Virus record (IMG/VR): IMGVR_UViG_2698536443_000010
Span: 1 to 35,514 of that record
Strand: one strand, 5' to 3'
Source of the DNA: a virus
Lineage: Duplodnaviria > Heunggongvirae > Uroviricota > Caudoviricetes
DNA length: 35,514 bases
The notes beneath the pieces are model-generated. The model had not been told where the DNA came from, did no database searches, and saw nothing but the letters and a program-made list of their open reading frames with translations. Positions within the stretch are counted from its first letter, which is position 1. Each line of letters begins with the position of its first letter. The translations under genes and the position numbers were made by a program. Below, piece by piece: positions 66 to 35,514 of the stretch.

Positions 66-458
66 TCACAGATAAAACACTCTCCAGGAAACCCGGGGCG
101 GTTCACACTTCGTATTATCATCAACCTTGTCAAACCGCCGATTCATCTCATCCATAATCTTGTCAAAGCGTTTATCCATCGCTTCGGTAAGCTCACCCTT
201 CAGGCTGTTAATGTCTGATTTGAGCTGCTCTTTCAGGTTAGCTGTATCAGATTTAAGCTCACCTTTCAGATTCGCAATATCGCATTCAAGATCACCTTTC
301 AGATGTGCTATGTCTGCTTTGAGTTCACCTTTCACCTCACCAACATCGGCTTTAGTTGAGAGGTTTGTAGTGCGTTCAGCAAGCGTCGCAAGGTCGTTTC
401 TTGTTAGCGATAAATCACCTTCGAGCCGCTCAATTCGCCTTTCAAGTTTATCTGACAT
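66..458 (-). CDS. Hypothetical coiled-coil protein with five 11-residue repeats (LKGELKxDIAx-type); start chosen at ATG 458 with GGAGG RBS, ORF extends in frame to 575
   Basis: ORF track 66..575; GGAGG 5-6 nt upstream of ATG at 458; 5 x 33-bp tandem DNA repeats at 190..354 encode the repeats. No recognised homologue. Confidence 0.5.
   Translation of the reverse strand: MSDKLERRIERLEGDLSLTRNDLATLAERTTNLSTKADVGEVKGELKADIAHLKGDLECDIANLKGELKSDTANLKEQLKSDINSLKGELTEAMDKRFDKIMDEMNRRFDKVDDNTKCEPPRVSWRVFYL
190..354. repeat. Five imperfect 33-bp tandem repeats (coding, within the coiled-coil gene)
   Basis: Units begin agctcaccc / agctgctct / agctcacct / agatcacct / agttcacct, each followed by ttca(g/c). 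Confidence 0.8.
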
Positions 459-558
459 TCCGCCTCCACTACTGCCGCCATCGCCACCATGATAAAGCAC
501 ATCACGCTCAGAATGCGACACACTACCTGCTGAATTACCGAAAAGATTTCTTGCTACA

Positions 559-1059
559 TTACCCATTATCACCATCCTGCGCTTTGTCTTTCTCCAACCA
601 CTTCAGCACCGCAGACGTACGATAAAGGCTCAGGTAACCACAATTCAGGCAATGCAGCGTGTAATAAGTTTTGCGCATATCAGGTATGCTCTTAACATCA
701 CCCAAAAAAGCATAAGATACATAATGCTTTATGTTCTCTTTAATTAACTCACTCTGCTCCTCCAGGGGTAGATTGTTAAAATTTTCTGGTTTCTTATTTT
801 TATCCCAGCAAAGATCCATACTTTCTGGAACAGATAATCGCGACGATCCACATGAAGGGCAGACACTGGAGACCCCCTTCTCAGACAAGAAACGGAAGAA
901 GATTTCTGGCGTAATCTCCATCAGCCGCTCTTTATGTTTTTTGACACGACTCATCGACTTCTTATTGATTTCATCAGCTTCTTCTTTGCATTTATCTTCT
1001 ATATATTTCGATAGTAAATAGTCATATAACTCTTTTTTTGTAGGTTTTTTTATTTCCAT
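559..1059 (-). CDS. Hypothetical protein with two CxxC pairs (CPSC ... CLNC), putative zinc ribbon; AT-rich moron
   Basis: 166-aa ORF; start 2 nt downstream of the int stop codon; strongly AT-rich, Lys/Glu-rich N-terminus. Confidence 0.5.
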   Translation of the reverse strand: MEIKKPTKKELYDYLLSKYIEDKCKEEADEINKKSMSRVKKHKERLMEITPEIFFRFLSEKGVSSVCPSCGSSRLSVPESMDLCWDKNKKPENFNNLPLEEQSELIKENIKHYVSYAFLGDVKSIPDMRKTYYTLHCLNCGYLSLYRTSAVLKWLEKDKAQDGDNG

Positions 1060-4462: not shown

Positions 4463-4828
4463 ATGATTCTCGCCAACGACTTTCTTGAATACCTGCTCAA
4501 CACAGAGCGTGATCTTGCCGCTCGCGTGCGTGATCGTTATGACATGTACCTGAAATCCCTGCCTGTACCGCAGCTCGCTGACGGAAAGATTGTTATTGAT
4601 GGTCGCTACATGATTGACAGCCACGAGGGAAATTACAGGCTTTACCGCATTGAAGGTGGCACCCCGTCCGTTATTGGCATTTACCAGCGCCCATCCTCTG
4701 CAATCGTCGATGTGATTGCCGACAGCATCCGCATCACACATCGCCATGCCGACACAGAAGACACCGTGCTGGAAATTCAGCGGCTGGCTACAGTCTGCCG
4801 CGACACCCTGAATGGCATGACGAAGTAA
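4463..4828 (+). CDS. Hypothetical early protein
   Basis: 121-aa ORF, AAGAGG RBS; immediately upstream of A. Confidence 0.5.
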   Translation: MILANDFLEYLLNTERDLAARVRDRYDMYLKSLPVPQLADGKIVIDGRYMIDSHEGNYRLYRIEGGTPSVIGIYQRPSSAIVDVIADSIRITHRHADTEDTVLEIQRLATVCRDTLNGMTK

Positions 4829-4834
4829 ATCACT

Positions 4835-7733: not shown

Positions 7734-8693
7734 ATGAAAATTTGTATCGACGACGGCTCCACCAACATCAAGCTGGCATGGACTGAGAACGGCGAACGCC
7801 GCAACGCCATCAGCCCGAACAGCTTCAAGTCGGAATGGTCTGCGCCGTTCGGTGGCACGCAGCCCGCGAACTACATGCTTGATGGCGTGCGCTATGGTTT
7901 TGATCCGGTCAGCGATCGCTTTGTCCAGACGACCGACACGCAATACCAATACAGCGATGTGAATGTCATTGCCATTCATCACGCGCTGGTCAAATCAGGC
8001 ATCACACCACAGGAGGTGGATGTGGTTGTCACCCTGCCACTGAGCGAGTATTTCGACACAAACGCACAGCCGGACATGGCCAACATCAACCGCAAAAAAG
8101 CGAACGTTATGCGCCCGGTGGAGTACCAGAACGGCGAAGCATTCACTATCCGTAACGTGCGGGTTATGCCTGAATCCATTCCGGCTGGCTTTAAGGCACT
8201 GGCTGACATGAGTCCGTTTGAATCCCTGCTGATTGTGGATTTGGGCGGAACCACGCTGGATGTGGCAAAGGTTCAGGGGCAACTGGCAGGTATCAGCCAG
8301 GTGTTTTGCGATCCACACGTAGGCGTTTCTCTGATGGCCGATGCCGTACTGGCGGTGATGGCCACTAACGGTATGCGCACCAGTCACCACATCGCCAATA
8401 CCATTATCGAACATCGCCATGATGAAGCCTGGCTGCGCCAGCACATCCACAATGACGCGCATTACGCCAGCCTGATGGCGGTTATTCGTGAAAAGGAAGA
8501 AACACTGAAACAACGCGTGATCCGCGCGCTGGCGGTTTTTTCGGGTTACGGGCGGGTGATGGTTGTCGGTGGAGGGGCGGAGATTGTGGCACCCGCTATC
8601 CGCGAAGCCTGCGGAGTTAATGCGACTTTCATCGCGGACGGGGTGCCACAGTTTGCTCTGGTTAATGGGCTGTACGCAATGGACAAGGAGTAA
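7734..8693 (+). CDS. parM: Actin-like segregation ATPase, ParM/StbA family
   Basis: MKICIDDGSTNIKLAW...YSDVNVIAIHHAL...VMPESIPAG...LLIVDLGGTTLDV...VMVVGGGAEI matches conserved ParM blocks of plasmid R1 as recalled. Confidence 0.85.
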   Translation: MKICIDDGSTNIKLAWTENGERRNAISPNSFKSEWSAPFGGTQPANYMLDGVRYGFDPVSDRFVQTTDTQYQYSDVNVIAIHHALVKSGITPQEVDVVVTLPLSEYFDTNAQPDMANINRKKANVMRPVEYQNGEAFTIRNVRVMPESIPAGFKALADMSPFESLLIVDLGGTTLDVAKVQGQLAGISQVFCDPHVGVSLMADAVLAVMATNGMRTSHHIANTIIEHRHDEAWLRQHIHNDAHYASLMAVIREKEETLKQRVIRALAVFSGYGRVMVVGGGAEIVAPAIREACGVNATFIADGVPQFALVNGLYAMDKE

Positions 8694-8697
8694 ACCA

Positions 8698-9009
8698 ATG
8701 ACGACACCAACCAGACGGATAAGTTTCTATCTGAAGCCTGCGGCCGTCAAGAACGAAAGCGAAGCATGCGCCTGGCTGGACAGCCTTACACCAGAAGCCC
8801 GCAAAAGCGGCCAACGCGTGGCTTTTCTGGCCGGGCTGGCACTTCTGAAAATGAATCCAGCAGAGGCTTACCGACTGGCTGCATGGGCTGACGATGAGGC
8901 GTTATCAGTGACACAAACCAGGACAGAATGCCCCGCGTCACAGCCAGTATCAACCGCACAGATAACCAGTCAGATGGCCGGAAATATCCGGGCATTATTT
9001 CCCGAATAA
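8698..9009 (+). CDS. parR: ParR-like adaptor candidate
   Basis: Immediately downstream of parM with AAGGAG RBS; RRISFYLKP...AGLALL...RALFPE resembles R1 ParR as recalled. Confidence 0.55.
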   Translation: MTTPTRRISFYLKPAAVKNESEACAWLDSLTPEARKSGQRVAFLAGLALLKMNPAEAYRLAAWADDEALSVTQTRTECPASQPVSTAQITSQMAGNIRALFPE

Positions 9010-23337: not shown

Positions 23338-23915
23338 TGACATTCAGAATGAGTGAACAATCACGGACCATAAAAATTTATAATCTACTGACCGGAACCA
23401 ATGAGTTTATTGGTGAAGGTGATGCATACATTCCACCTCATACAGGTCTGCCTGCAAACAGTACCGATATTGCCCCGCCAGATATTCCGGCTGGCTTCGT
23501 GGCCGTTTTCAACAGTGATGAGGCATCGTGGCATCTCGTTGAAGACCATCGGGGTAAAACGGTTTATGACGTGGCATCAGGGGACGCGTTATTTATTTCT
23601 GAACTCGGTCCGTTACCGGAAAATGTTACCTGGTTGTCGCCGTATGGAGAGTATCAGAAGTGGAACGGCACATCCTGGGTGAAAGATGCAGAAGCAGACA
23701 AACTATTTCGGATAAGGGAGGCGGAAGAAACAAAAAACAGCCTGATGCAGGTAGCCAGTGAGCATATTGCGCCACTTCAGGATGCCGTAGATTTGGATAT
23801 TGCGACGGAGGAAGAGGCATCGTTACTGGCTGCATGGAAGACATATCGGGTATTGTTGAATCGTGTTGATACAACAGTAGCAGCGGATGTTGAGTGGCCA
23901 GTCGCCCCACAATAA
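23337..23915 (+). CDS. G: Tail fibre assembly protein, P2 gpG-like (divergent N-terminus)
   Basis: C-terminal [12 protein letters not shown]...EWPVAPQ resembles the P2 G C-terminus; TAATG overlap with H. Confidence 0.75.
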
Positions 23916-23958: not shown

Positions 23959-24531
23959 CTATTTATACAATACAGCACCGCTCTTTTTAGTTATATATGT
24001 GCAGTTCGATGGTATATCTTTATTTATAAAAGACATTGCACCTATTTTTACATTATCCCCAATTTTACGGGATAATCCAATGATGCAACAATTAGCTCCG
24101 ATATCAACGTTGCTACCAATTTTTACTCTTGAACCAGGTATGTCACCATCTATCTGTCCAATGGTCGTATTCTGTCGTAACACCAGATTTTCACCAGCAT
24201 CAACAGCAAAATGAACAACAATTCCAGCATGATGGGGAATTGTTAACCCTTTTCCAATATTTGCGCCCAATCCAATTTCACAACCAAATTTGTTAATTAT
24301 TTTACTGTTTAACTTTTTGGCTGCTTTCTTATGTAATTTATTACCATTAATATACATTTCGTTAGCCAACCGCCACCAGAAAAGGAAATTCCGGTTACGC
24401 TGTTTTTTCTCTCTTAAAAGCCTCCAGATATCCATACGTTTCCGCCGAATTACTTCATATTTCCAGAAGTTTTTTAAATTAGTAGAGTTCCCAAATAAAA
24501 CAAAGTGAATTGCCATTAAGTAAGACAGCAC
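23959..24531 (-). CDS. Hexapeptide-repeat (left-handed beta-helix) acetyltransferase, CysE/O-acetyltransferase-like; AT-rich moron
   Basis: Isoleucine-patch repeats IGANIGKGLTIP...VKIGSNVDIGANCCIIG...KIGDNVKIGAMSFI; GTG start at 24531 after AAGGAG RBS (ORF extends to 24564; alternative ATG 24516). Confidence 0.7.
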   Translation of the reverse strand: MLSYLMAIHFVLFGNSTNLKNFWKYEVIRRKRMDIWRLLREKKQRNRNFLFWWRLANEMYINGNKLHKKAAKKLNSKIINKFGCEIGLGANIGKGLTIPHHAGIVVHFAVDAGENLVLRQNTTIGQIDGDIPGSRVKIGSNVDIGANCCIIGLSRKIGDNVKIGAMSFINKDIPSNCTYITKKSGAVLYK

Positions 24532-24687
24532 GATAATCTCCTTAATTATTATTTCAGACGACACATATTATAAGGTTAAGAGATTATAAAATCCTGTTGT
24601 TTGTTATTCAAAAACAATTTTCTGAGAAGGACATACAACAGCAAGTCGCCAGTCACCTTCATCAGGAAATTGGCGACATACGTTAAA

Positions 24688-25182
24688 TCAGAGCAGCCCC
24701 TTAACTGAGCTGGTCGCGCTATTAAGGGATGATGTCACCTTATCTTTGAAGCCGGACAACATATCGCTGAACGATGAGGATTGCAGGCGCTCCCGCAAAT
24801 CCTCATCACAGCGTTCAAGAGTCAGTGAAAATTCTATCTTTTTCGCCTTACCGTAGCGATCAAACTCGGAACGGGTCGTATTCGTTCCGGTCAGGACATA
24901 CATGCCGTAAATCTGCCCGACGCCATCAATCAAAGGCCAGGGTCGTCCTGTATACGCCTGCGTGGTCAGCAGCGACAGCGACACTTCGCCACCTGTAATT
25001 TCAGGATAAAGCACACCAGAAAGAACGATGCGATCATCACCTGCACCGATATACTGCCAGCTTGCTGAACGGTTAACGCGTTCATTTTTCACATGCCGCC
25101 AGCTTTTGTTTTGCTGTAACTGCTGATGCGGCAGCGTGCGCAGCTCAAAAACAAACATGCCGTAGATCATCATCATGGCCAT
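24688..25182 (-). CDS. U: Tail protein, P2 gpU-like
   Basis: SWRH...VNRS...GAGDD...LSG...ITGGEVSLSLLTTQAYTGRPWPLIDG...IYGMYV...LRERLQSSS...SGFKDKVT resemble P2 U. Confidence 0.9.
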   Translation of the reverse strand: MAMMMIYGMFVFELRTLPHQQLQQNKSWRHVKNERVNRSASWQYIGAGDDRIVLSGVLYPEITGGEVSLSLLTTQAYTGRPWPLIDGVGQIYGMYVLTGTNTTRSEFDRYGKAKKIEFSLTLERCDEDLRERLQSSSFSDMLSGFKDKVTSSLNSATSSVKGLL

Positions 25183-25188
25183 GACTCC

Positions 25189-28005
25189 TCAATCTTTATC
25201 GTAAAAACTGCCACGCCCGGCACGGGCGCGCCGTTCCATTTCTGCCCTGACCATTTCACCGACCAGTTTCGCCAGTTCGCGGGGATTCTGCGTAACAACG
25301 TTATGCAGATGAACATGAATTTCACCACCAAATTCGGAGGCAACAGGCTCCCGGTTACGGGAAGTTACAGGAACTGATGCCACTGGAGATCGTATAGCCT
25401 CCGCCACCGGGCGGGAGCTGGCCGCAACAACAGTGACCAGCGCCGGAGGCAGCGGAGCCGGGACCACGGGTGTGATATTAATTGCGGGGGCAGGCTTACT
25501 GACCTGCGCAATCTTCCGCTCCTGCCACTCCCCACGAACAGCAAGTGCCCGGGGCAGGTTTTTAAAGACAATATCGCCGGGGCCAATGCGTTTTTTCGTC
25601 TCCTCAACCAGCTTACCTGTGTTATCAGCAATTTTGCTGAGTCTGCGCAGCGTACCGGTATTGCTGTCTGTGAGCGGTTTATTGTCTTTGGGGTTATCAC
25701 CTCCGGTGCCATTGCCATTTTCCACAGGCTTCGGCGGATTGATTTTCGCCAGGTCCCCCTGAAGCAAGGCAACCTTGTCCTGAAGAATGGCCGCACGCTG
25801 TGCGTCTTCGATTTTCTTGCGCGCCCTTTCCGCTTCATCCGGAAGCACACCAAGCTTTTCAAGTATCCACGCCAGCGTATCCAGCAACATTTTTGCAGGT
25901 GTCAGAACAAGTTGTAACGCACCGCCAAGAACGTTACCGAATATCTCGCCAGCACTGGTACATTTATCCAGAGTTTCCTTGCTGGACTCCATCGGTGACA
26001 GCAGCGATTTAAACCAGTTAAACACCTGGCTGATCCCACTCCCGATTGCGTCAAAAACAGGACTAAACCGTTCAAAGGTTTCGCGCAACGGGGTCAGCCT
26101 TTCCATAATCCCGCTGAACACCCCGGCAAAAAATGCCCTGATGGGATCCCAGTATTTCCAGATAAGAACGGCAGCTCCGGCAAGCGCAGCCACGATAAGA
26201 CCAACCGGACTGAACAACGCCCCGATAGCGCCTCCCAGCAAAGAAACGGAACCCGTCACCATTCCCCATAGTGCTGGCAGAACCCTGACAGCATTCATTG
26301 ATCCGGTCAGGAGGGAAAAACCAAGACGCAGTTTTGCCAGCGGGCCAGCAAGCACACCAATAGCCAGCGACAACGAGCCAACCGTTGCAGTCATTGCCAG
26401 CAGTGCACCGCCTGCAATCAGTAGCTGGCGCGTCAGTGCGGGATGGGCCTGCGCCAGCGCCGTCACCTTTGATACCACACGCGTGAGCCACTGCGTGACA
26501 GAACGCAGCGGACCGTCAATCAGATCTGCAATGCGGATGCGCAACCCTTCCCATGCACTGCTGAGTGATTTCAGATCGCCGTCAAGGTTGTTGGCCATAA
26601 CCTTTGCCGTGCGTTCAGCCTCACCGCGCGCACCTTCAAGTTCTTTTCTCAGTTTGGGTAAGGAGCCGTCACCTGCCGCATCAACGAGGGCCATAAATGA
26701 TGTGAAAGCCTCTTCTCCGGCAATGTCCTTAAAGAACGATACCCGGTCAACTTCCCCGTATTTGCGGGTAGCTTTATAAAGGTCAGCCAGCACATCCTCC
26801 ATCGGACGCATTTTGCCCCCGGCATCCGAGACAGACACGCCAAGCTCTTTCAGCGCCTCTGCTGCCGCCTTTGGCGGTGATGCCAGACGAGCCAGGCTGG
26901 CACGCATTGCCGTCCCGGCATCACTCCCTCTGATACCCATATTCGCCAGCACGCCCGCCATCGCTGCGGCCTGCTCCAGCGATATTCCCAGCTTGCCCGC
27001 CACCGGACCTGCATATTTCATGGTTTCGCCCAGTGCGCGAAGGTCAGTGTTGGTACGGGTAAATGCTGCGGTGAGCGTGTCGCCAACCCGGTCCATCTGG
27101 TCAGCAGAAAGGCCGAACTGCGTCAGGATATTTGAGCCAATATCCGCCGTCTCGCCGAGATCCATGCCGCCAGCCGTTGCCATGCTCAGCACGCCCGGAA
27201 GCGCAGCCTGAATGGCCTGCGGAGTGAAGCCAGCCATTGCAAGAAATGCCTGCCCACTGGCGGCATCGCCTGCGGTGAACTGCGTTTCAGAGCCAAGTTT
27301 TAACGCCTGCTCACGCAGAGCCTTAAACTGCGGGCTGTTTTTGTCGATTCGCGTCAGTGCCTGAACGCGGGACATCTCTTTGCCGAACCCGATCGCAGGC
27401 TGTAAAAAACGCCCGGCAGCATAGCCGCCAGCCGCTGCCGCACCAATTGCCAGCGCACCACCTGTTTTCAGTTTTCCCGCGGTTTCCTGCACGCGCGAAT
27501 ACCGCTCACGCGCCCGCGTTACACGCGCAAGCGCCTGCCGTTCGCGTTCAAGCTGGTTGTTGTACTGTTCGGTGCGTCTGATGGCCTGCTGGATGGTGTT
27601 ATCGCTGCCTGTCAGGGAAATGCCGTGGCGTTTCAGCTCTCCGCCAAGCTCCCGCATTTTCTGAATTTCCCGTGTGCGCGATTCATTCAGGCGTTCAAGC
27701 CGGGTGCTTAACTGCTGCATCAGCTTTTGTTGTTTTTCGCTGAGCACTGTACCCGTGCGTTGTAACTGATTAAGGGCGTTAAGCTGGCGTCGTGCTTTCA
27801 CGATACCCGCATCCGCTTTACTGACAGCGTCGCGGGCGCGCTCAAATGAACGCGCCTGACGCTCGAGATTTTTGATCGCCCCCTGCGTTCGCTGGATGGA
27901 GTCACCAAACTGCCCCATCAGGCGGCGGGCGTTTTCGGCAGGCCGGGTCAGCCTGTCAACGGCGCTGAAAGCGACCCGGATATCAAGAGTCTTCATTGTC
28001 TGCAT
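25189..28005 (-). CDS. T: Tail tape measure protein, P2 gpT-like
   Basis: ~940-aa ORF with coiled-coil N-terminus and Gly/Ala-rich hydrophobic core, downstream of E/E'; start at ATG 28005 (alternatives ATG 27996, GTG 28050). Confidence 0.85.
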   Translation of the reverse strand: MQTMKTLDIRVAFSAVDRLTRPAENARRLMGQFGDSIQRTQGAIKNLERQARSFERARDAVSKADAGIVKARRQLNALNQLQRTGTVLSEKQQKLMQQLSTRLERLNESRTREIQKMRELGGELKRHGISLTGSDNTIQQAIRRTEQYNNQLERERQALARVTRARERYSRVQETAGKLKTGGALAIGAAAAGGYAAGRFLQPAIGFGKEMSRVQALTRIDKNSPQFKALREQALKLGSETQFTAGDAASGQAFLAMAGFTPQAIQAALPGVLSMATAGGMDLGETADIGSNILTQFGLSADQMDRVGDTLTAAFTRTNTDLRALGETMKYAGPVAGKLGISLEQAAAMAGVLANMGIRGSDAGTAMRASLARLASPPKAAAEALKELGVSVSDAGGKMRPMEDVLADLYKATRKYGEVDRVSFFKDIAGEEAFTSFMALVDAAGDGSLPKLRKELEGARGEAERTAKVMANNLDGDLKSLSSAWEGLRIRIADLIDGPLRSVTQWLTRVVSKVTALAQAHPALTRQLLIAGGALLAMTATVGSLSLAIGVLAGPLAKLRLGFSLLTGSMNAVRVLPALWGMVTGSVSLLGGAIGALFSPVGLIVAALAGAAVLIWKYWDPIRAFFAGVFSGIMERLTPLRETFERFSPVFDAIGSGISQVFNWFKSLLSPMESSKETLDKCTSAGEIFGNVLGGALQLVLTPAKMLLDTLAWILEKLGVLPDEAERARKKIEDAQRAAILQDKVALLQGDLAKINPPKPVENGNGTGGDNPKDNKPLTDSNTGTLRRLSKIADNTGKLVEETKKRIGPGDIVFKNLPRALAVRGEWQERKIAQVSKPAPAINITPVVPAPLPPALVTVVAASSRPVAEAIRSPVASVPVTSRNREPVASEFGGEIHVHLHNVVTQNPRELAKLVGEMVRAEMERRARAGRGSFYDKD

Positions 28006-28512
28006 TCCCGCTGCGAAGTGCCGCCCGCTCACGCCAGCTAACCACTTCACCGGGCGTCATCATGAAGATTTCGGCGGGCGACCAGTTAAAAATAACGGCA
28101 ATATCTGCCACAAAGTCTTCTATGTGCTCAAAGCACACAACCGTGATCAGGCTTCCGTCGCCTGTTCGTTCTTCCCGCCAGAGTCCGCACCGCTCAAAAA
28201 ATTTACGGCAACCACACATAACTGAATAAAGTCACGGGATGCCATTTTTTTGATCGTCACTTCATCCAGTCGCGGTGATGTCACGCGTGACAGCAGCGTA
28301 AACATGGCTTCCGCTTTCAGATTCAGCACATCAGACAGCGACAAATCTCGCAGAGATCCAGCCTGCTTAATAGCCCCGGAGATCTCCACATACGTGATTT
28401 TTTCGCCGCCTCGCTCAATTGGTTGGGTAAGTTTTACGCCACACTCACTGGTTTCTTTCACAGTGTCAGCAACTACCGTGTTTTCGGTATCGATGTTTTT
28501 CGTCTCTTTCAT
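27983..28512 (-). CDS. E+E' fusion produced by programmed -1 frameshift
   Basis: Heptamer T TTT TTG in the E zero frame (minus strand, 28201..28195); the -1 frame stays open to 27983, overlapping the T start. Confidence 0.65.
28147..28512 (-). CDS. E: Tail assembly chaperone, P2 gpE-like (zero-frame product)
   Basis: Position between FII and T; contains the TTTTTTG slip site near its 3' end. Confidence 0.8.
   Translation of the reverse strand: MKETKNIDTENTVVADTVKETSECGVKLTQPIERGGEKITYVEISGAIKQAGSLRDLSLSDVLNLKAEAMFTLLSRVTSPRLDEVTIKKMASRDFIQLCVVAVNFLSGADSGGKNEQATEA
28195..28201 (-). other. Slippery heptamer TTTTTTG (-1 programmed ribosomal frameshift site)
   Basis: Zero-frame codons AAT TTT TTG; -1 frame reads AAA TTT TTT GAG. 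Confidence 0.7.
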
Positions 28513-28566
28513 CAGGAAACTCCTTTCAGTCAGAGGCGACGCACTGCGCCGCCTGCATATTACTTA

Positions 28567-29079
28567 TCAGCCAAGCCCGAGCGCGGAACGGATGCGATCG
28601 GGCACAATGTCCTTGCCGTCCTTCCGGTAAATGAAGTTCAGCAGGTCAATCTCCCACAACGGGCGATCGTTAACACTCAGCTTGTAGTAGGTGTTTTTAA
28701 TGGCGTAAGTGTGTGATGTGGCTTCGCCCTGTTTGGCTTCCCCCATATCAATTTCCGTCACACGTCCGCGCATTTCGACTTCATACAGGTCGCTTTCTGC
28801 ATCGGTGTAATATTCACCCGCAAAACGCAGCAGCGTGCCGTCAATCGTGCCGCCATACTTAAGGAACAGCTCACGAACTGCGCCCCCCATGACAAAGCTC
28901 GCATCAAGCGCGGAGTCGTCCAGACCGAGATCAATACTTACCGCACCCATCATGCCACCACCCCGGTAGCTGTCGGTTTTGCGCGTCAGCTTAGGCAGAG
29001 TGACGGACGTCACCTTACCCACTTCGTTTTCACCATCCACAAACAGCGTAAAAAAGCGAAGATGTTTTGACACAGCCAT
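28567..29079 (-). CDS. FII: Tail tube protein, P2 gpFII-like
   Basis: 170-aa ORF directly downstream of FI; size and position match P2 FII. Confidence 0.85.
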   Translation of the reverse strand: MAVSKHLRFFTLFVDGENEVGKVTSVTLPKLTRKTDSYRGGGMMGAVSIDLGLDDSALDASFVMGGAVRELFLKYGGTIDGTLLRFAGEYYTDAESDLYEVEMRGRVTEIDMGEAKQGEATSHTYAIKNTYYKLSVNDRPLWEIDLLNFIYRKDGKDIVPDRIRSALGLG

Positions 29080-30263
29080 CAGGCACCTCCCAGCACCGCA
29101 AATGCGGGACCAAAGAATTCATCAGTAAACGTCTGGTAAAGCTCCATGTCTTCCAGTGGCGGAACGGGCGTATATTTGTAGCGAATACGCACACGCCCCT
29201 GACGTAAATCCGTGGTGCCGTTATCCACCACGTCATACCAGCACGACGCCCCAATCAGTTTCCCGGCAGTAACCAGTGAATCCAGTTTTGCCCTGATGGC
29301 ACTGATAACATCTTTCACGTTCGCAGGCGTCAGTGGACTGTCGATGGTTTCAAACTGCGCTTCCGCAATTGAATCAGCCAGCACCTGTGCGGTTCGGGTA
29401 TACACCTCAAAGATGTAGGCGTTCGTTTCCGGTGTGCGGTTGCCCCAGAAGCGGAACCCGTTGCGACGAATAATGGTCGTGATTTCTTTGTTGTTGAGGC
29501 TGTTGGCATCACTGTCTTCGGCCTGCAACGACCAGAACACATGCCTCGACATCCCCAGCACATTCTTAACCGGAACGTTGGAGAGTGATTTGTGCCATCC
29601 CTGCTCATGGTCAATGTACGCACGAAGGCCGCACGCATAGGCAGGCGCGGGGAACGTTTCGTTTTTGCCACTTTTCGGGTTGTAGGCGATGAAGTCCGGC
29701 CATAAGAGCATCACCTCACGTTCGTTGAATTTCTGGCGGTAGGTAATCGCATCAGCCATCGTGTCACAGCCATGACATGAGGCATACACAAACGCGCGCA
29801 GTTTACCCGCAATCACGCACAGGGATTTTGTCACCGCCTCCGTATCCAGCTCCGGCGCGGCCAGAATACGCGGACGGTATCCGATGCTTTCATCCTGCTC
29901 TGCAACAAGCAGCGCATACATCCCCGTATAGCTGCCGTCAGATTCAGAACCACCGATAACCAGTTGATCCTGCGTCTTTCCGTCTTCTTCTTTGTGTTCA
30001 GCCACGCGAACGACGATCACCTTTGTGCTCACCTGGTCTGCAATGGCCTTAAGCGCACGATAAAGCGTCCCCGTTGTCCCGCATTTTCCCAGCACGTCAT
30101 TGACGCGGGTCAGCAGTGTGGGCTTGTTCAGCGGGAACAGCTCCGCGTCCGCATCATCCGCCGTTGCCACGATACCGATAACACTGGAATCAACATCATT
30201 AATCGCTGTTACCAGGTCGGTACTTTCCGTAACACGGGCACCATGAAAACGAGTTTCACTCAT
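29079..30263 (-). CDS. FI: Tail sheath protein, P2 gpFI-like
   Basis: 394-aa ORF at the head of the FI-FII-E-T-U block; size and position match P2 FI. Confidence 0.85.
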   Translation of the reverse strand: MSETRFHGARVTESTDLVTAINDVDSSVIGIVATADDADAELFPLNKPTLLTRVNDVLGKCGTTGTLYRALKAIADQVSTKVIVVRVAEHKEEDGKTQDQLVIGGSESDGSYTGMYALLVAEQDESIGYRPRILAAPELDTEAVTKSLCVIAGKLRAFVYASCHGCDTMADAITYRQKFNEREVMLLWPDFIAYNPKSGKNETFPAPAYACGLRAYIDHEQGWHKSLSNVPVKNVLGMSRHVFWSLQAEDSDANSLNNKEITTIIRRNGFRFWGNRTPETNAYIFEVYTRTAQVLADSIAEAQFETIDSPLTPANVKDVISAIRAKLDSLVTAGKLIGASCWYDVVDNGTTDLRQGRVRIRYKYTPVPPLEDMELYQTFTDEFFGPAFAVLGGA

Positions 30264-30420
30264 AGCTTCAGCCCCTTGTATCCGTTAAATGATTCGGCAA
30301 CAATCATCACCCACCACGCGCGTAATCTCACTCCTGCGCCGTTCTCCCGCCACGGCGACAACAAAAAGCAGTAACCCCCTCCGCACGCACATGCGACCAT
30401 GCCGCACAGGGAGGGAACAG
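30264..30420. promoter_or_regulatory. Divergent intergenic region between FI (minus) and D (plus); presumed promoters
   Basis: 157 bp between divergent starts; no TGT-N12-ACA element found by eye. Confidence 0.35.
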
Positions 30421-31524
30421 ATGACCGACACCACCATGCAATTGCTCAGTCAGGGCACAGACCCCGTGAAAATGCCGGATTTTGATATTCTCGCGGAGGG
30501 TAAAACGCTGTCAGGCGTGGCAGAGCGCCTGATGAGCCTGTCACTGACCGACAACCGGGGATTTGAAGCGGACCAGCTCACCATCACGCTGGATGATGCG
30601 GATGGTCAGTTGCAGCTACCGCCACGGGGCGCGCGCCTGACGGTTCTCATTGGCTGGAAAGGAGAACCGCTGACAGAAAAAGGCACTTACATTGTTGATG
30701 AAATCGCTCACGAAGGACCGCCGGACAGGCTGACTGTTTCAGCCAGAAGCGCAGATTTTCGGGATGAATTTAACGTTAAACGTGAGGTGTCCTGGCATGA
30801 TGTGACCGTTGAGCGTGTGGTATCCGCCATCGCTCATCGGTATGGTCTGAAACCGCAAATCAGCGAAATGCTGATGGATATCGAAATCGACCACGCCGAC
30901 CAGACCGAAGAAAGCGACATGTCCTTCCTTACGCGCATGGCGGAAATGCTGGGCGCAATCACCACAGTAAAAAGCGGCAATCTGTTATTCATCATGCCAG
31001 GTGGTGGCGTGAACGCACAGGGCCAGCCGTTGCCCTCGTTCGCCATTACACGCAGCAGCGGCGATCGCCATCAGTTCCGTATTGCTGACCGCGAGGCGTA
31101 TACGGGGGTACGCGCCTACTGGCTTGATCTTAATTACGGGAAAAAGAAAAAAGTCAGCGTGAAACGCCGTAAACCGCCAAAACCCAAAAAGGAGAAAAGC
31201 AGCAGCCGTGAAGGTGATTATATGGAAGGCGCGGAAGGCAATGTGTTTGTGTTACGCAAGACTTATCAGAACGAGCAGGCAGCAAGACGCGCAGCGGCGG
31301 CAAAGTGGCAGCAGCTACAACGCGGAGCCGCAGCGTTCTCCATCACACTGGCACGTGGACGCGCAGAACTCTACCCCGAAATGCATGGCACGGTAACAGG
31401 CTTTAAAAGCGAGATTGATAATCAGGACTGGATTATTGCGAAAGCCGAGCACACCATTGATAACAGCGGCTTTACCACGCAGCTTGAGCTTGAGGCAAAA
31501 ATCCCGGAATGGATAGCAGAATGA
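30421..31524 (+). CDS. D: Late control / tail protein, P2 gpD-like
   Basis: LSLTDNRGFEADQL...RSADFR...SWHD...FLTRLAE...ITRSSGDRH...YTGV...REGDYM...NVF...KWQQLQRG...FTTQLELE resemble P2 D; GGGAGGG RBS before ATG 30421. Confidence 0.9.
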   Translation: MTDTTMQLLSQGTDPVKMPDFDILAEGKTLSGVAERLMSLSLTDNRGFEADQLTITLDDADGQLQLPPRGARLTVLIGWKGEPLTEKGTYIVDEIAHEGPPDRLTVSARSADFRDEFNVKREVSWHDVTVERVVSAIAHRYGLKPQISEMLMDIEIDHADQTEESDMSFLTRMAEMLGAITTVKSGNLLFIMPGGGVNAQGQPLPSFAITRSSGDRHQFRIADREAYTGVRAYWLDLNYGKKKKVSVKRRKPPKPKKEKSSSREGDYMEGAEGNVFVLRKTYQNEQAARRAAAAKWQQLQRGAAAFSITLARGRAELYPEMHGTVTGFKSEIDNQDWIIAKAEHTIDNSGFTTQLELEAKIPEWIAE

Positions 31525-31688
31525 GACTCTTAAATGTATTAGTCCAGACACGTACTAGCGGGCTAAACGGCACAGTCTTATCTGACCATCTGCCCCTAAC
31601 ACAGAGCAGACGGTCCTTGATCTTACCCACTAATAATGGACGCGCGACTAATATAATTTATTGCTTTTTATTTATACCTCACTGAGAT

Positions 31689-32324
31689 TTAGCGAGCTAA
31701 TATATTCAAAGAATTTAACAATTGAGTGTCGAGTGTTTCAGTTGCAGGAATCGGTAATCCATTCGCAATGCGGTAATTTTTCACAGACAGCCTTGTGGAT
31801 GGCCCCATTATGCCGTCAATATTTCCGTTATAAAATCCCCTGTCCAGCAATGCGAACTGAACTCGCATAATCAATCGCTTACGTTTCTCTGCATCAGAAG
31901 CAAGCCCATTACTCGTACGGTTAACCTCTGAAGTTCCAACAGAACTCGTGTTAGTGGTTCTATTATTATCGTTAGAACGAAGTGCACGCACCGAGGAAGA
32001 GGACGATGAGGAACTTGCACCTGAACTTGAAGAACCAGATGAACGTGGTGAGCTGTATGTTTTTGGATAATAGGGGGTACTTCCACCATAGTATCCACCA
32101 CCTGATGAGGATCTATGAGAGCTATGGCTCCTATGAGAGCTATGGCTTCGATGCCCTGCGATATAAAATGGGACTTCCGTGTTAAGTGGAGCTATCACTA
32201 AATCATGCTCATTAAGAGTCATACCAGGTAAATCACTCGCTCCTGTAGATGAATCGCTTGCCCATACAGAATTGTTGAGAGCCAAAAATCCCGGAAGTAG
32301 AGCAGCAAAATTAAACTTTTTCAT
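31689..32324 (-). CDS. hxsA: His-Xaa-Ser repeat protein (HxsA-like): signal peptide, HRS/HSS repeat tract, Ser/Gly-rich linker, peptidoglycan-binding-like C-terminal domain
   Basis: MKKFNFAALLPGFLALNNSVWA signal peptide; HRSHSSHRSHSSHRS; C-terminal LIMRVQFALLDRGFYNGNIDGIMGPSTRLSVKNYRIANGLP; ATGA overlap with upstream radical-SAM gene. Confidence 0.7.
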   Translation of the reverse strand: MKKFNFAALLPGFLALNNSVWASDSSTGASDLPGMTLNEHDLVIAPLNTEVPFYIAGHRSHSSHRSHSSHRSSSGGGYYGGSTPYYPKTYSSPRSSGSSSSGASSSSSSSSVRALRSNDNNRTTNTSSVGTSEVNRTSNGLASDAEKRKRLIMRVQFALLDRGFYNGNIDGIMGPSTRLSVKNYRIANGLPIPATETLDTQLLNSLNILAR

Positions 32325-33433
32325 AAAATTGGTCTCGGTGATTGATGAAAACGGCCTTTTGAGGAACTGAAATAGCCAGCACAGGAAGGCTTCTGAGTAC
32401 ATTCATCACATTCTTTTGGATAGTAATTTTTCCAATCAGAGATCGACTGAACAGCAAGCTCCCTAGCCCTTTCAGGAAGATAACACAAAGGATAATTAAA
32501 AATTGTCAGAGGTATGCCTGACCTGTATGCAGCGTCTATGGCAGAGATTATTTTCTCACTATAACTACTGTGATCAATGAAGATGGTGGACCAGTTTTTT
32601 CGTGCCCAACCGATAGGCTCCAACCCCATAAGGGAAATCTGATTGATGTTGGAGAACACACGGCCAGCGAATTCTACAATATCATCCAATTCGGTATAGT
32701 TAGCCAGTGTAGGAATAACTCTAAGTTCGATATTAATCCCCAAGTTTCCTGCATTGATTAACCCTTTAACCGTTTCATTAAATGCGCCATCACTCCCTAC
32801 CAGATGATCATGCACAAGTGGTCTTGATGAGTAGAGCGGGATACCAAAGGTGATTTTGATCTTTTTGCTTCGCTTTGCCATTTCCTGTGTAAAGTTGATA
32901 TCAGCAAATTTGCGTCCGTTTGTTAAAACATGTAAAGCAGTATCTGGTGAATTCTCGATGATAAAATCAATGAAGTGAAGGAAGTCATCCCCATATAGCA
33001 AAGGTTCACCACCGCTGACCCCAACAACTCCGTTCAAGCCAAATGAAGCTATAGCAAGAGCTGATTGGGTAAGTAGCCAGTCATCATTTATTTTCTTTGG
33101 TGGCTGCGAACAAAACAGACACAAGTTATTGCAGCGTTCCGTAACTAAGACAGTATTATGATTGGCTTTGCGTGACAGAATAACGCGTATCATATTGCCA
33201 TTGTTGATTATCCCAATATCTCCATCTTCAATTGACTCAAATAATTCAGTGCTAATAACAGAGAAATCAAAGCATGGTGGAATGGCATCATTATTGCCTT
33301 CAGCAACTACTAGCAAATTGGGCAAAAAGAATAAAGGGTTCACTGGTTTTTGTTTGCATAACCGATAGAACCCCGTGGGCACGTTCTCTGTAGAAGCAAA
33401 ATGAAAGATATCGTTCCTGATAACCTCAGACAT
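32321..33433 (-). CDS. hxsB: Radical SAM enzyme with SPASM-like C-terminus (HxsB-like maturase; B/C assignment tentative)
   Basis: CNNLCLFC (CX3CX2C), GGEPLL motif, C-terminal Cys cluster CDECTQKPSCAGYF. Confidence 0.75.
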   Translation of the reverse strand: MSEVIRNDIFHFASTENVPTGFYRLCKQKPVNPLFFLPNLLVVAEGNNDAIPPCFDFSVISTELFESIEDGDIGIINNGNMIRVILSRKANHNTVLVTERCNNLCLFCSQPPKKINDDWLLTQSALAIASFGLNGVVGVSGGEPLLYGDDFLHFIDFIIENSPDTALHVLTNGRKFADINFTQEMAKRSKKIKITFGIPLYSSRPLVHDHLVGSDGAFNETVKGLINAGNLGINIELRVIPTLANYTELDDIVEFAGRVFSNINQISLMGLEPIGWARKNWSTIFIDHSSYSEKIISAIDAAYRSGIPLTIFNYPLCYLPERARELAVQSISDWKNYYPKECDECTQKPSCAGYFSSSKGRFHQSPRPIL

Positions 33434-34814
33434 ATGCCCATCCTTTTAGCATCTCAGCCTTCGAACCACCCTCTGAGATGCAGTTCATCAGATACCTGAA
33501 CATCCCCTTGTGATATTGACAAAACGTTGAACGACTCCTATCACCGACAGGCTCACCCTGTACACTTATGTTCTGGCATGGATCTGAACCACAAAATGGT
33601 TGATATGCACATGTATCACAACCTGGCAGAGCAAAATTGAACGATGAACTCAATACTGCGTTATAGTAAGGACTATCAGAAAATGATAGCGTCTTAACTT
33701 CACCCGCACTGAACTCCGTTTCAGGATTCACCTTCTGCAACATACGGCTCTCATCGCTACCATATACTCGACCGTCATAATTGAAAAGAATACTGTTAAG
33801 CACGACTCCACTTGGAGACTTTAAATCCGCATAACCACTAAAACCGGGATTGAAGATCCTTTTCAGATGAATGGAGGCCGAATGTTCCACAACCCTTATC
33901 CCTTCATTATTAATCTTAAGGATTTCATCTATCAACGAGGCATAGAAGCTGAAGTATTCGTCCATAGAAAAGGTGAAAGAAGCTTTTTGTGCAAACCCAT
34001 AGGGACTAACAGGTCGGATAAACATGTCCTTGAGACCAAGAGACAAGTGAGCCTGAACAATCGATTCAGGACGTTTGATAAGCTCTTTAGTAACTGTAGT
34101 AACCGTTGCAACGCGGCCAGCACCTAAAGAGTGTTTGATAGCCTCTACCCCTGACACTGTTCTACTGTACGCAAGCCCACGACCAAGAATTCGATTACTG
34201 TTGTGAACAACTTCCTCACCATCAAGCGACACAGAGAACGTTATGTTCCGGTCTCTCGACCATTCAATCATATCCTCATTCAAGACGGACAGACTTGATG
34301 CCACCACCATCTCAAAATTGGTTCTTCCCAGCGTTTCAGCACATTGATCATAGATGCTCTGAATTAAATCAAACCGCAAGAGAGGCTCCCCACCCTGTAT
34401 CTCTATTTTGTAAGGTGGCGTTGATAGTTTTTTAATAGCCGAAATAATATCGGGGATGAGCTCAGGATTTAGGTCGTAACCTGAGGCATTAACAGAAGCT
34501 CTACTAACCTGGCAATACTTGCATGTATGGTCACAACGTAATGTGGGTACAATCATGAAAATTGGCCTGACAGCCAGTTCATTCATCAATCGTTTTGCAA
34601 AAGCAGAACTTAAAGCATAGGGAGTTATAGCAGATGAGCTTTCACTGGTTATGAAAAGCTTACTTTCTAGCACGTTTGATTGCTCCGAACTAATTCGCTC
34701 ATCAGAAAGATCAATAAGGTCTTGCTCACCAATGAAATGATGAAAACCTGCAAGGTTGCTTATAAACACCTGTCCATTAGGCAATCTGTCAAAATTAAAT
34801 GGCATCAATTCCAT
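33426..34814 (-). CDS. hxsC: Radical SAM enzyme with SPASM-like C-terminus (HxsC-like maturase; B/C assignment tentative)
   Basis: CDHTCKYC (CX3CX2C), GGEPLL motif, C-terminal CDTCAYQPFCGSDPC. Confidence 0.75.
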   Translation of the reverse strand: MELMPFNFDRLPNGQVFISNLAGFHHFIGEQDLIDLSDERISSEQSNVLESKLFITSESSSAITPYALSSAFAKRLMNELAVRPIFMIVPTLRCDHTCKYCQVSRASVNASGYDLNPELIPDIISAIKKLSTPPYKIEIQGGEPLLRFDLIQSIYDQCAETLGRTNFEMVVASSLSVLNEDMIEWSRDRNITFSVSLDGEEVVHNSNRILGRGLAYSRTVSGVEAIKHSLGAGRVATVTTVTKELIKRPESIVQAHLSLGLKDMFIRPVSPYGFAQKASFTFSMDEYFSFYASLIDEILKINNEGIRVVEHSASIHLKRIFNPGFSGYADLKSPSGVVLNSILFNYDGRVYGSDESRMLQKVNPETEFSAGEVKTLSFSDSPYYNAVLSSSFNFALPGCDTCAYQPFCGSDPCQNISVQGEPVGDRSRSTFCQYHKGMFRYLMNCISEGGSKAEMLKGWAYV

Positions 34815-35128
34815 TATGAAAGCCTCTCATCAACACTGCGAAGCACTTTATGGACAATAGAGTCTCTCAACGCCCCTGTTTTATGCTGTAGCTTTTCTCG
34901 CAAAGAGTAATCATTAAGCAGCCTATCGAATTCATAAAGGAATTTGGGATTATCGTTTTCAAAAGAGATTATCCAGTGGGAAACGTCTTCATGGAGTTTC
35001 CATCGAGTAAGCGGAGTCATCCAATATAGACTATTGCGTATAACCCATTCAGAATATAGTTCTTTCTCAAACACTCTTTCGCTCATTGCAATTATCTTCC
35101 AATACAAATATTCATGATCAGCAACCAC
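34814..35128 (-). CDS. hxsD: HxsD-like small protein with LLNDYSLRE motif
   Basis: FDRLLNDYSLREKLQ matches the LLNDYxLRE signature; first gene of the operon; start uncertain (GTG 35128 or ATG 35086). Confidence 0.65.
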   Translation of the reverse strand: MVADHEYLYWKIIAMSERVFEKELYSEWVIRNSLYWMTPLTRWKLHEDVSHWIISFENDNPKFLYEFDRLLNDYSLREKLQHKTGALRDSIVHKVLRSVDERLS

Positions 35129-35162
35129 TTTAAAGCGGATTTTTCCTATGGCAACAATAATA

Positions 35163-35182
35163 TAACATATCCATAGATATGT
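35163..35182. repeat. Perfect 20-bp palindrome AACATATC-cata-GATATGTT in the hxsD / ogr divergent intergenic region
   Basis: Read directly; candidate operator. Confidence 0.6.
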
Positions 35183-35338
35183 TACAGATGCCTTGTTTCC
35201 CGTTGACTAATACATCACAACGTTAGTAATGGCTATCACAATTGTGAACTTCCACTTTTCACACAAGACAAGCTGTTAATTGGAATCTGTATCAGTACAA
35301 CTTAGAATAGAGGAAGCACCACAGTAAGGGAGGTCGCT

Positions 35339-35509
35339 ATGTTCCGTTGTCCACTTTGTGGCGCATCTGCCCGTATCCGCACTAGTCGTCCGGAAAATGA
35401 TTCAAACACTGTGCGGCAAAAGTGGATTTGCCCCTATATTTCCAGACATCTGTTATCACTTAACCCATTACAAGCCCGCTGCCGCAGATATTCCCGTGGC
35501 GAGCGATAA
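35339..35509 (+). CDS. ogr: Ogr/Delta-family late transcription activator, divergent or possibly frameshifted (56 aa)
   Basis: N-terminus MFRCPLCGASARIRTSR resembles P2 Ogr MFHCPLC..ARTSR; strong RBS AGGGAGG; C-terminal half lacks the expected second Cys pair. Confidence 0.55.
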   Translation: MFRCPLCGASARIRTSRPENDSNTVRQKWICPYISRHLLSLNPLQARCRRYSRGER

Positions 35510-35514
35510 CCCAG

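Follow-up and report, generated by a model that had tools for sequence, protein, structure and literature searches.

Introduction

The closest described relative of the locus considered here is HXS, a four-gene antiphage system of Escherichia coli that has been characterized experimentally in a single study (Li et al., Nat Commun 2026, and preprint; PMC13128918). In the account given there, the His-Xaa-Ser system was first described by Haft and Basu (2011). The hxsDBCA operon from E. coli strain MEM (CP012378) restricted 110 of 113 coliphages, and all four genes were needed for this effect. Restriction does not involve abortive infection, and phage adsorption is unchanged. T7 mutants that escape HXS are altered in gp15 and gp16, which are ejectosome proteins, and both a DpnI/Southern assay and electron microscopy (TEM) showed that entry of T7 DNA is delayed by the system (PMC13128918).

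Several properties of the published HxsA protein bear on the present analysis. Its residues 1-22 form a signal peptide, and it also contains five HxS repeats and a peptidoglycan (PG)-binding domain; the protein is periplasmic and was detected by antibodies. When the signal peptide was replaced, periplasmic HxsA and defense were both lost, and mutation of the PG-binding domain likewise abolished periplasmic localization and defense. N-terminal cleavage of HxsA needs HxsB, HxsC, and HxsD and their Fe-S Cys motifs; residues 23-47 are required for defense and are absent from the mature form, and linker residues 114-139 are dispensable. Furthermore, a covalent +8 Da change on HxsA was mapped to SHRSS, the last HxS unit, and conversion of any single HxS unit to AAA led to loss of defense. 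HxsC and HxsD form a complex. Periplasmic HxsA binds DNA in vitro, a gel shift that is the basis of the inferred DNA trapping, and the authors propose that wall-anchored, basic HxsA intercepts incoming phage DNA. Metals go unmentioned in that paper. HXS is termed "typically chromosomally encoded," and for 77% of hxs operons the location is outside any predicted prophage (PMC13128918).

It is rare for radical-SAM enzymes to mature an entire exported protein, as they do with HxsA, in place of a small peptide, and HXS defense acts in the periplasm, before phage DNA gets to the cytoplasm. The role of HxsA was a real open question from the naming of the family in 2011 until the answer appeared in print in 2026. 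Because the architecture reported below is the one that defines this family, and because the family has since been functionally explained, both the architecture and the function of HxsA are already known. What the present locus adds is limited to its prophage location, at the junction between gpD and ogr, and to the disruption of ogr by IS2. The value of the analysis lies in correct annotation: a lysogen of this P2-like prophage carries a predicted broad antiphage and superinfection-exclusion module along with an ogr gene cut by IS2. This is relevant to phage-susceptibility typing of E. coli with this prophage, for example the matching O26:H11, STEC, and ETEC isolates.

The hxsDBCA Operon

Throughout, "the window" refers to the whole stretch of DNA that was analyzed, which is 35,514 nt in length. 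On its minus strand, positions 31689..32324 form an intact ORF of 211 codons, as confirmed by translation. We consider it highly probable that this ORF is hxsA, encoding the effector of the HXS antiphage system, and that it shares a transcript, and is coupled in translation, with hxsD, hxsB, and hxsC. The encoded 211-aa His-Xaa-Ser repeat protein matches the TIGR03979 profile with 161.8 bits (cut-off 121.65), in an alignment that spans HxsA aa 4-209 and profile positions 4-189 of 190. This alignment runs from end to end, and the family model therefore includes both the signal region at the N-terminus and the domain at the C-terminus. At the level of DNA, the gene is 100% identical to the annotated hxsA (WP_012817792.1) of NC_013361.1.

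The three partner genes lie on the same strand. First, hxsC (32321..33433, minus strand) encodes a radical SAM maturase of 370 aa that matches TIGR03977 with 397.5 bits (cut-off 267.9). Second, hxsB (33426..34814, minus strand) encodes a radical SAM/SPASM-type maturase of 462 aa (TIGR03978, 560 bits; cut-off 370). Third, hxsD (34814..35086, minus strand) encodes a protein of 90 aa (TIGR03976, 90.6 bits; cut-off 50), for which an in-frame GTG at 35128 would provide an alternative to the ATG start at 35086 and give a product of 104 aa. Together with hxsA these genes follow the order D-B-C-A on one strand, and all four score above the NCBIfam equivalog cut-offs. The start ATG of hxsA shares bases with the stop codon of hxsC (ATGA), hxsC and hxsB overlap by 8 nt, and hxsB and hxsD overlap by 1 nt. 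Given these overlaps between neighbors, the four hxs genes constitute one tightly coupled minus-strand operon. The region 31600..35423 is 100% identical to the genome of E. coli O26:H11 str. 11368 (NC_013361.1), where PGAP names hxsA, hxsC, hxsB, and hxsD. Promoter and terminator scans of the operon returned counts no higher than those in shuffled sequence, and Rfam and tRNA scans found no RNA gene in or near it.

The residues on which the published system depends are present in the maturases. HxsC contains Cys105, Cys108, Cys342, and Cys345, and HxsB contains Cys98, Cys101, Cys399, and Cys402, in each case matching the positions mutated in PMC13128918, and HxsD keeps the conserved motifs LYW (aa 20-22) and LLNDYSLRE (aa 56-64). 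HxsB additionally gives weaker profile matches to TIGR03942 (anaerobic sulfatase maturase, 1.1e-14), to TIGR03906 (QhpD, 1.7e-8), and to PapB-type peptide maturases. The AlphaFold2 model of HxsD (pLDDT 94.6) predicts a beta-alpha-beta-beta arrangement followed by a long helix. We considered and rejected the identification of HxsD as a PqqD-like RiPP recognition element (RRE), as this confident model is without matches to the winged-helix fold of PqqD or other RRE domains. A profile search of PDB sequences with HxsD returned no match. In PADLOC-DB v2 (2023), which is older than the HXS paper and contains no model of HXS, there was no match for HxsA or HxsD, and HxsB and HxsC gave only weak matches, of approximately 28 bits, to pVip (viperin-type) radical-SAM proteins.

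Architecture of HxsA

HxsA begins with MKKFNFAALLPGFLALNNSVWA, which is followed by SD. We assign this segment (aa 1-22, 32259..32324, minus strand) as a predicted signal peptide, called by hand from the rules for n-, h-, and c-regions: MKK supplies two Lys, a 13-residue hydrophobic core follows with a Kyte-Doolittle 9-mer maximum of 2.18, and NNSVWA precedes the SD at which the mature protein would start. The predicted signal peptidase I site, between VWA and S, has V at -3 and A at -1. The 211-aa protein lacks Cys altogether, and hence any lipobox, and the n-region, which is MKK without RR, contains no twin-arginine motif. Export of HxsA as a lipoprotein or by the Tat pathway is excluded on these grounds.

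In the preliminary description, the five HxS triplets were listed next after the signal peptide. The five units are indeed present, at aa 58-72, but they are not adjacent to the signal peptide: the two are separated by an acidic stretch of 35 aa (aa 23-57, 32154..32258, minus strand) that has a net charge of -5 and ends in the conserved APLN..P.YIAG. This region is probably a leader or recognition segment. The K+R-D-E balance of HxsA increases from +6 to +10 once residues 23-47 are removed, and the span corresponding to the mature form, aa 48-211, thus has a net charge of +10.

The five tandem His-Xaa-Ser units (aa 58-72, 32109..32153, minus strand), HRSHSSHRSHSSHRS, read HRS-HSS-HRS-HSS-HRS. 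The tract carries the pattern of the HxsA family, in that it starts with HRSHSS and ends with SHRS, and the modification motif of PMC13128918, SHRSS, sits at aa 69-73. Based on the His and Ser frequencies of HxsA itself, the chance expectation for a run of five units is approximately 9e-10. At the DNA level, Tandem Repeats Finder detects an 18-nt unit within the tract, in 1.9 copies with 100% match, at 32113..32147. Short tandem repeats encoding the HxS units had been proposed at 32107..32140; the repeat is real, and its coordinates were a few bases off.

A disordered, basic linker rich in Ser, Gly, Tyr, Pro, Asn, and Thr (approximately aa 73-142, 31899..32108, minus strand) connects the tract to the C-terminal domain. 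AlphaFold2, given the homologue alignment as input, models residues 1-140 of HxsA as disordered, and pLDDT is low in the linker, falling below 50 across most of its length. The same model predicts a three-helix domain at approximately aa 143-210 with pLDDT above 90. In the translation, aa 73-111 reproduce exactly the Ser/Gly/Tyr-rich linker string quoted in the preliminary description, and aa 151-191 the C-terminal one.

Several lines of evidence indicate that the C-terminal region (approximately aa 143-211, 31692..31898, minus strand) is a PG_binding_1 peptidoglycan-binding domain. First, PG_binding_1 (PF01471) matches 70 of the 74 aligned HxsA homologues, with a best E-value of 5.9e-18; HxsA alone reaches 22.3 bits, 0.7 below the Pfam cut-off of 23. 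Second, a profile of the HxsA family matches PG-binding domains in the PDB, namely SleB (6tci, 5.8e-7; also 4fet), an L,D-transpeptidase, SltB3, and, more weakly, phiKZ gp144. Third, the best Foldseek PDB matches to the C-terminal model (6tci, 5anz, 7qvd, and CtpB) are all PG_binding_1 domains. The target-normalized TM-score for 6tci is 0.61 and the top matches have a probability of 1.00, with E-values that are weak because the domain is short. The prediction of a PG_binding_1 domain at the C-terminus, which had been made for this protein before, is thus carried by the family profile, the structural model, and the fold search together.

This architecture bears on an earlier bioinformatic reading, in which HxsA is a classical RiPP precursor whose HxS core is released as a small modified peptide and whose remainder is discarded. 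It is true that hxsA adjoins two radical-SAM maturases related to peptide maturases and that the short NCBIfam families HxsA2 and HxsA3 (96 and 81 positions) weakly match the HxS tract. However, HxsA, at 211 aa, has a signal peptide of the Sec type and a PG-binding domain that is folded and conserved. Furthermore, mass spectrometry of active HxsA covers approximately residue 48 to the C-terminus, and the PG-binding domain is needed for defense (PMC13128918); an intact, modified HxsA of approximately 17 kDa has already been reported as the only active species. We find the precursor reading hardly credible. The opposite view, that HxsA is an exported, wall-associated substrate of radical-SAM enzymes unlike a RiPP precursor, agrees with the sequence, profile, and structure tests and with the published work. 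The further proposal that the protein is displayed as a surface structure does not, as its published function is antiphage defense in the periplasm (PMC13128918).

Conservation among HxsA Homologues

A search with HxsA returned 617 proteins at E <= 1e-3; the analysis covers the 120 listed, of which 108 are full-length, and residue conservation was read from an alignment of 74 sequences. Among the 120 listed of the 617 matches, 104 of the 108 full-length proteins have a signal-peptide-like N-terminus. The Sec-type signal peptide that the preliminary description had recognized in HxsA is therefore well founded, being in agreement with these homologues, with the rule check on aa 1-22 and its VWA-S junction, and with residues 1-22 of the published protein (PMC13128918). 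A net acidic segment precedes the tract in 89% of 107 homologues (median charge of the segment, -4), and the parts that follow, namely the HxS units, the linker, and the C-terminal domain, are basic across homologues. The linker ranges in length from 33 to 127 aa but is consistently low-complexity, with approximately 75% of its composition drawn from S, G, T, P, N, Q, Y, and A.

The number of HxS units, compared over the 108 full-length homologues among the matches listed, is mostly 4-6: the longest run has 5 units in 66 proteins, 6 in 24, and 4 in 14, and four proteins have 2-3. The position of the run is near-constant in almost all 108, and it nearly always starts with HRSHSS and ends with SHRS. 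In the 74-sequence alignment, A56, H58, S60, H61, S69, H70, and S72 are invariant and L47 is conserved in at least 90% of sequences. Given these invariant residues and the near-constant position and ends of the run, the HxS tract is a constrained motif and not a freely variable repeat. The succession of signal peptide, acidic region, HxS units, linker, and PG_binding_1 domain is a signature of the family and no oddity of this gene.

Approximately half of HxsA is low-complexity and modelled as disordered, as might be seen if the ORF were a product of chance or an artefact of composition. We regard the probability of this as negligible, given that the protein matches TIGR03979 above its cut-off, is annotated in RefSeq, corresponds to a protein detected by antibodies (PMC13128918), and has 617 homologues with invariant residues in both the tract and the domain.

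The same conservation could be taken to indicate that the His tract is mainly a Zn, Ni, or Cu site of a wall-bound periplasmic protein, with a role in metal handling or in a metal-dependent structure; metal binding had been raised in the preliminary description. The five His occur at a strict 3-residue period and are invariant or nearly so among homologues, and metals were outside the scope of PMC13128918. Nevertheless, this interpretation seems quite improbable. The operon gives phage resistance, and this resistance depends on both radical-SAM enzymes, on each single HxS unit, and on a covalent modification (PMC13128918); moreover, hxs genes are found in prophage or island cargo, not in metal regulons. 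Separately from this question, metal binding could still serve as a cofactor of HXS defense.

Prophage Location and Distribution of hxs

The window is a P2-like prophage that contains an integrase, replication gene A, capsid and tail genes, gpD, ogr, and hok, and its tail region is 97-98% identical to phage P88 and relatives (Peduoviridae). The hxs operon and its flanks make up a low-GC cargo segment of 3,777 bp (31522..35298) between gpD and ogr, with a GC content of 41.4% versus 54.2% in the remaining prophage. The left neighbor of the cargo is gpD, the tail/baseplate hub gene (30289..31524, plus strand), which matches Phage_GPD with an E-value of 4.4e-17 and is 97-98% identical to its counterparts in P88-like phages. 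To the right lie the first 28 codons of the late-gene activator ogr (35339..35423, plus strand). The gene is cut there by IS2: the match to the complete ogr gene in NC_013361.1 and in P88 ends at 35423, and the IS2 end that follows (35424..35514) matches IS2 copies from many records with 100% identity. The distance from the end of gpD to the ogr match is approximately 11 bp in P88, PhiR44_2, Chuche, and P884B11, compared with 3,777 bp here. The P2-like prophage gained the hxs cassette by horizontal transfer, as an insertion.

This arrangement recurs. Three IMG/VR viral contigs have the layout ogr-hxsDBCA-gpD-sheath-tube, and hxsA directly adjoins gpD in at least 30 E. coli genomes. In the phage genome collection that was searched, no genome carried hxs, and the matches were confined to ogr, gpD, and IS2. 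We find hxsBC in 154 of 5,426 complete E. coli genomes, with a best-match identity of at least 99% in 46, 90-95% in 45, and approximately 71-75% in 63. One locus was sampled from each of the other two clades, and in these the operon is part of an integrase- and relaxase-bearing island with a DUF6119/TIGR04141 gene adjacent. The island loci are in rough agreement with the published observation that 77% of hxs operons are outside prophages (PMC13128918).

The junction itself may also be of interest. Phage 500465-2 carries a different gene between gpD and ogr, on the minus strand, which encodes a protein of 340 aa with a weak, sub-threshold HEPN_RiboL-PSP match. As a different gene occupies the same junction in another phage, this site could be a cargo hotspot. 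We put forward, tentatively and with less than even confidence, that HXS is here owned by the temperate phage, that the gpD-ogr junction is a further cargo or defense hotspot of P2-like phages, and that HXS serves there as broad superinfection exclusion.

Fit to the Tested Operon

The fit of this copy to the tested MEM operon was judged by residue numbering and peptide mass. Representatives of the three E. coli hxs clades do not differ in HxsA residues 1-92. The identity of this copy to the two other clades is 84-90% for HxsA, 62-81% for HxsD, 76-94% for HxsB, and 80-94% for HxsC. The HxsD residues numbered Y23, D61, and R65 in PMC13128918 are Y21, D59, and R63 here, and this shift of +2 fits the 92-aa "MAM" form that is found in related HxsD proteins, a form compatible with the other E. 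coli clades and not with this HxsD. Because of the shifted HxsD numbering, the operon tested in PMC13128918 probably belongs to another clade.

The published precursor ion of m/z 714.5 (5+) is reproduced here by residues 48-79 plus 23.96 Da (calculated 714.52). This increment corresponds to +7.97 plus one oxidation or, equally within rounding, to two additions of +12.00. Residues 48-78 were tried for the same ion and gave no fit, the values being 677.1 for the unmodified peptide and 678.7 with +8. We read the mismatch between 48-78 and 48-79 as a detail of numbering or oxidation and not as an error in PMC13128918.

Predicted Mode of Action

We infer the defense role of this copy from the related E. 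coli operon of PMC13128918, and we expect that the HXS of this prophage would behave like the published system. By that analogy, HxsB, HxsC, and HxsD would act on HxsA ahead of export and would bring about both the removal of the N-terminal ~47 residues and the +8 Da change in the last repeat, SHRSS. Mature, strongly basic HxsA would accumulate in the periplasm, for which the PG-binding domain is needed, and would delay phage DNA entry or block it, leaving the cell alive (PMC13128918). In a lysogen, the system may act as broad superinfection exclusion to the benefit of the prophage. Additionally, the acidic segment 23-47 may be a leader that is recognized by the maturases and that masks the basic core of HxsA; the change in charge from +6 to +10 on loss of these residues fits such masking.

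How mature HxsA would stop the DNA is a matter on which two views can be taken. With the defense role unchanged, wall-anchored mature HxsA might obstruct the ejectosome channel or passage through the peptidoglycan, instead of acting as an electrostatic trap for DNA. The T7 escape mutations lie in gp15 and gp16 of the periplasm-spanning ejectosome, the authors themselves note that DNA is normally inside a protein channel and list channel-blocking alternatives, and the PG-binding domain, which is present in 70 of 74 homologues, is essential (PMC13128918). On the other hand, no interaction of gp15/gp16 with periplasmic HxsA was seen in pull-down, DNA is shifted in vitro by periplasmic HxsA, and the restriction of 110 of 113 phages makes recognition of a single phage protein less likely (PMC13128918). 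The strongly basic character of mature HxsA (aa 48-211, net +10) also speaks against obstruction. We consider obstruction possible but rather unlikely; under either view, the ORF at 31689..32324 would encode the defense effector.

Comparison with Known Systems

The present locus has in common with the HXS system of PMC13128918 the gene order D-B-C-A, the signal peptide at residues 1-22, the five HxS units, the SHRSS motif, and the PG-binding domain, as well as the Cys positions of HxsB and HxsC and the LYW and LLNDYxLRE motifs of HxsD. It differs in that this copy is cargo of a P2-like prophage, whereas the tested operon comes from another strain and probably from another clade.

A typical RiPP precursor is a short leader-core peptide that has neither a Sec signal peptide nor a folded domain, and HxsA departs from this type. 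A parallel is offered by AtsB/anSME, which are paired with Ser-type periplasmic sulfatases, and by QhpD, which is paired with the gamma subunit of quinohemoprotein amine dehydrogenase. As in HXS, the target of the cytoplasmic radical-SAM/SPASM enzyme is Ser or residues close to it, within an entire protein that then functions in the periplasm. However, HxsB scores far below the cut-offs of TIGR03942 and TIGR03906, and HXS has another target motif, employs two maturases together with HxsD, and serves defense instead of the formation of an enzyme cofactor.

With regard to superinfection exclusion, the Imm and Sp proteins of T4, which are discussed in PMC13128918, likewise act at the envelope and at the step of DNA entry, and, like them, the system is here phage-borne. 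There is no sequence relationship, and HXS differs in consisting of four genes, in having a post-translationally matured effector, and in its broad range.

The predicted C-terminal domain of HxsA shares its three-helix fold and sequence motif with the PG_binding_1 domains of SleB, SltB3, L,D-transpeptidases, CtpB, and the phiKZ gp144 endolysin. In SleB, SltB3, CtpB, and others this domain is joined to an enzyme, whereas in HxsA it is joined to a disordered, HxS-bearing tail.

Finally, Rousset et al., in 2022, are reported to have located the defense cargo hotspots of P2-like phages at the old/tin and Z/fun loci. The present locus resembles these hotspots in that a low-GC defense cassette is placed between conserved phage genes, and differs from them in its site, which is the junction of gpD and ogr.

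Location and Genomic Setting of the hxs Operon

The hxs operon lies in a low-GC insert of 3.8 kb (31522..35298; 41.4% GC vs. 54.2%) that sits precisely between gpD (30289..31524, plus strand) and ogr of this P88-like prophage. In related phages, gpD and ogr are spaced by 11 bp. Phage 500465-2 has a different gene at the same junction, which encodes a 340-aa protein with a weak match to HEPN_RiboL-PSP (22.5 bits, below the cut-off). The gpD-ogr junction looks like a variable cargo site.

The start of ogr, which encodes the late-gene activator, and an IS2 element occupy 35339..35514. IS2 begins at 35424, fills the remainder of the window, and breaks ogr after 28 codons. It is probable that the prophage cannot activate its own late genes, yet it retains hxs. 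IS2 adjoins the same hxs locus in several E. coli genomes, including those of TD225-C4, ETEC4068, and ETEC4075.

Cargo may also be present elsewhere in the prophage. An ORF at 23959..24564 (minus strand) occupies the same position as a gene annotated as "serine acetyltransferase" in the prophage of E. coli O26:H11, and this site is likely another cargo position. The gene for tail-fibre assembly lies on one side of the ORF and the tail module, which has the opposite orientation, on the other. An Rfam match to the IS009 RNA family (23680..23878, plus strand; 188.4 bits vs. a gathering score of 117) falls in the region of the tail-fibre assembly gene, within its 3' portion. At the attachment end, two ORFs that adjoin the integrase (66..575 and 559..1059, both minus strand) have no match in the O26:H11 prophage region; one has coiled-coil-like Pfam matches only, the other has no Pfam match, and the two may represent further cargo.

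Immediately after the phage replication gene is a plasmid-type partition pair, composed of ParM (7734..8693, plus strand; StbA_N, 1.8e-82; ParM_N, 1e-68) and a second ORF (8563..9009, plus strand; Plasmid_stab_B, 4.3e-24). A P2-like prophage that is integrated would not be expected to carry such a pair.

Comparison with Other hxs Loci and Related Phages

A gene of ∼540 aa belonging to the "sporadically distributed" DUF6119/TIGR04141 family comes directly after hxsA in loci sampled from the other two E. coli hxs clades, as it does in four contigs from IMG/VR. The two E. coli loci, L003 and L004, in which this gene is located at 4657..6300 and 4743..6350, respectively, are within islands that bear an integrase and a relaxase. 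This gene, which may be a linked defence gene, is missing from the window.

A precursor ion of m/z 714.5 (5+) was reported in the experimental study of the HXS system (Li et al. 2026; PMC13128918). This ion fits residues 48-79 of the HxsA encoded here with the addition of 23.96 Da, and at the rounding of the published m/z an addition of +7.969 with one oxidation is indistinguishable from two additions of +12.000. Residues 48-78 with an addition of 8 Da were also considered as the source of the ion and do not match.

The tail module (sheath, tube, E/E', tape measure, and U; 24688..30263, minus strand) is opposite in strand to gpD and ogr, an arrangement that differs from the gene order of P2. 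The same opposed orientation is seen in P88 and is therefore normal among phages of this group rather than the result of a rearrangement in this strain.
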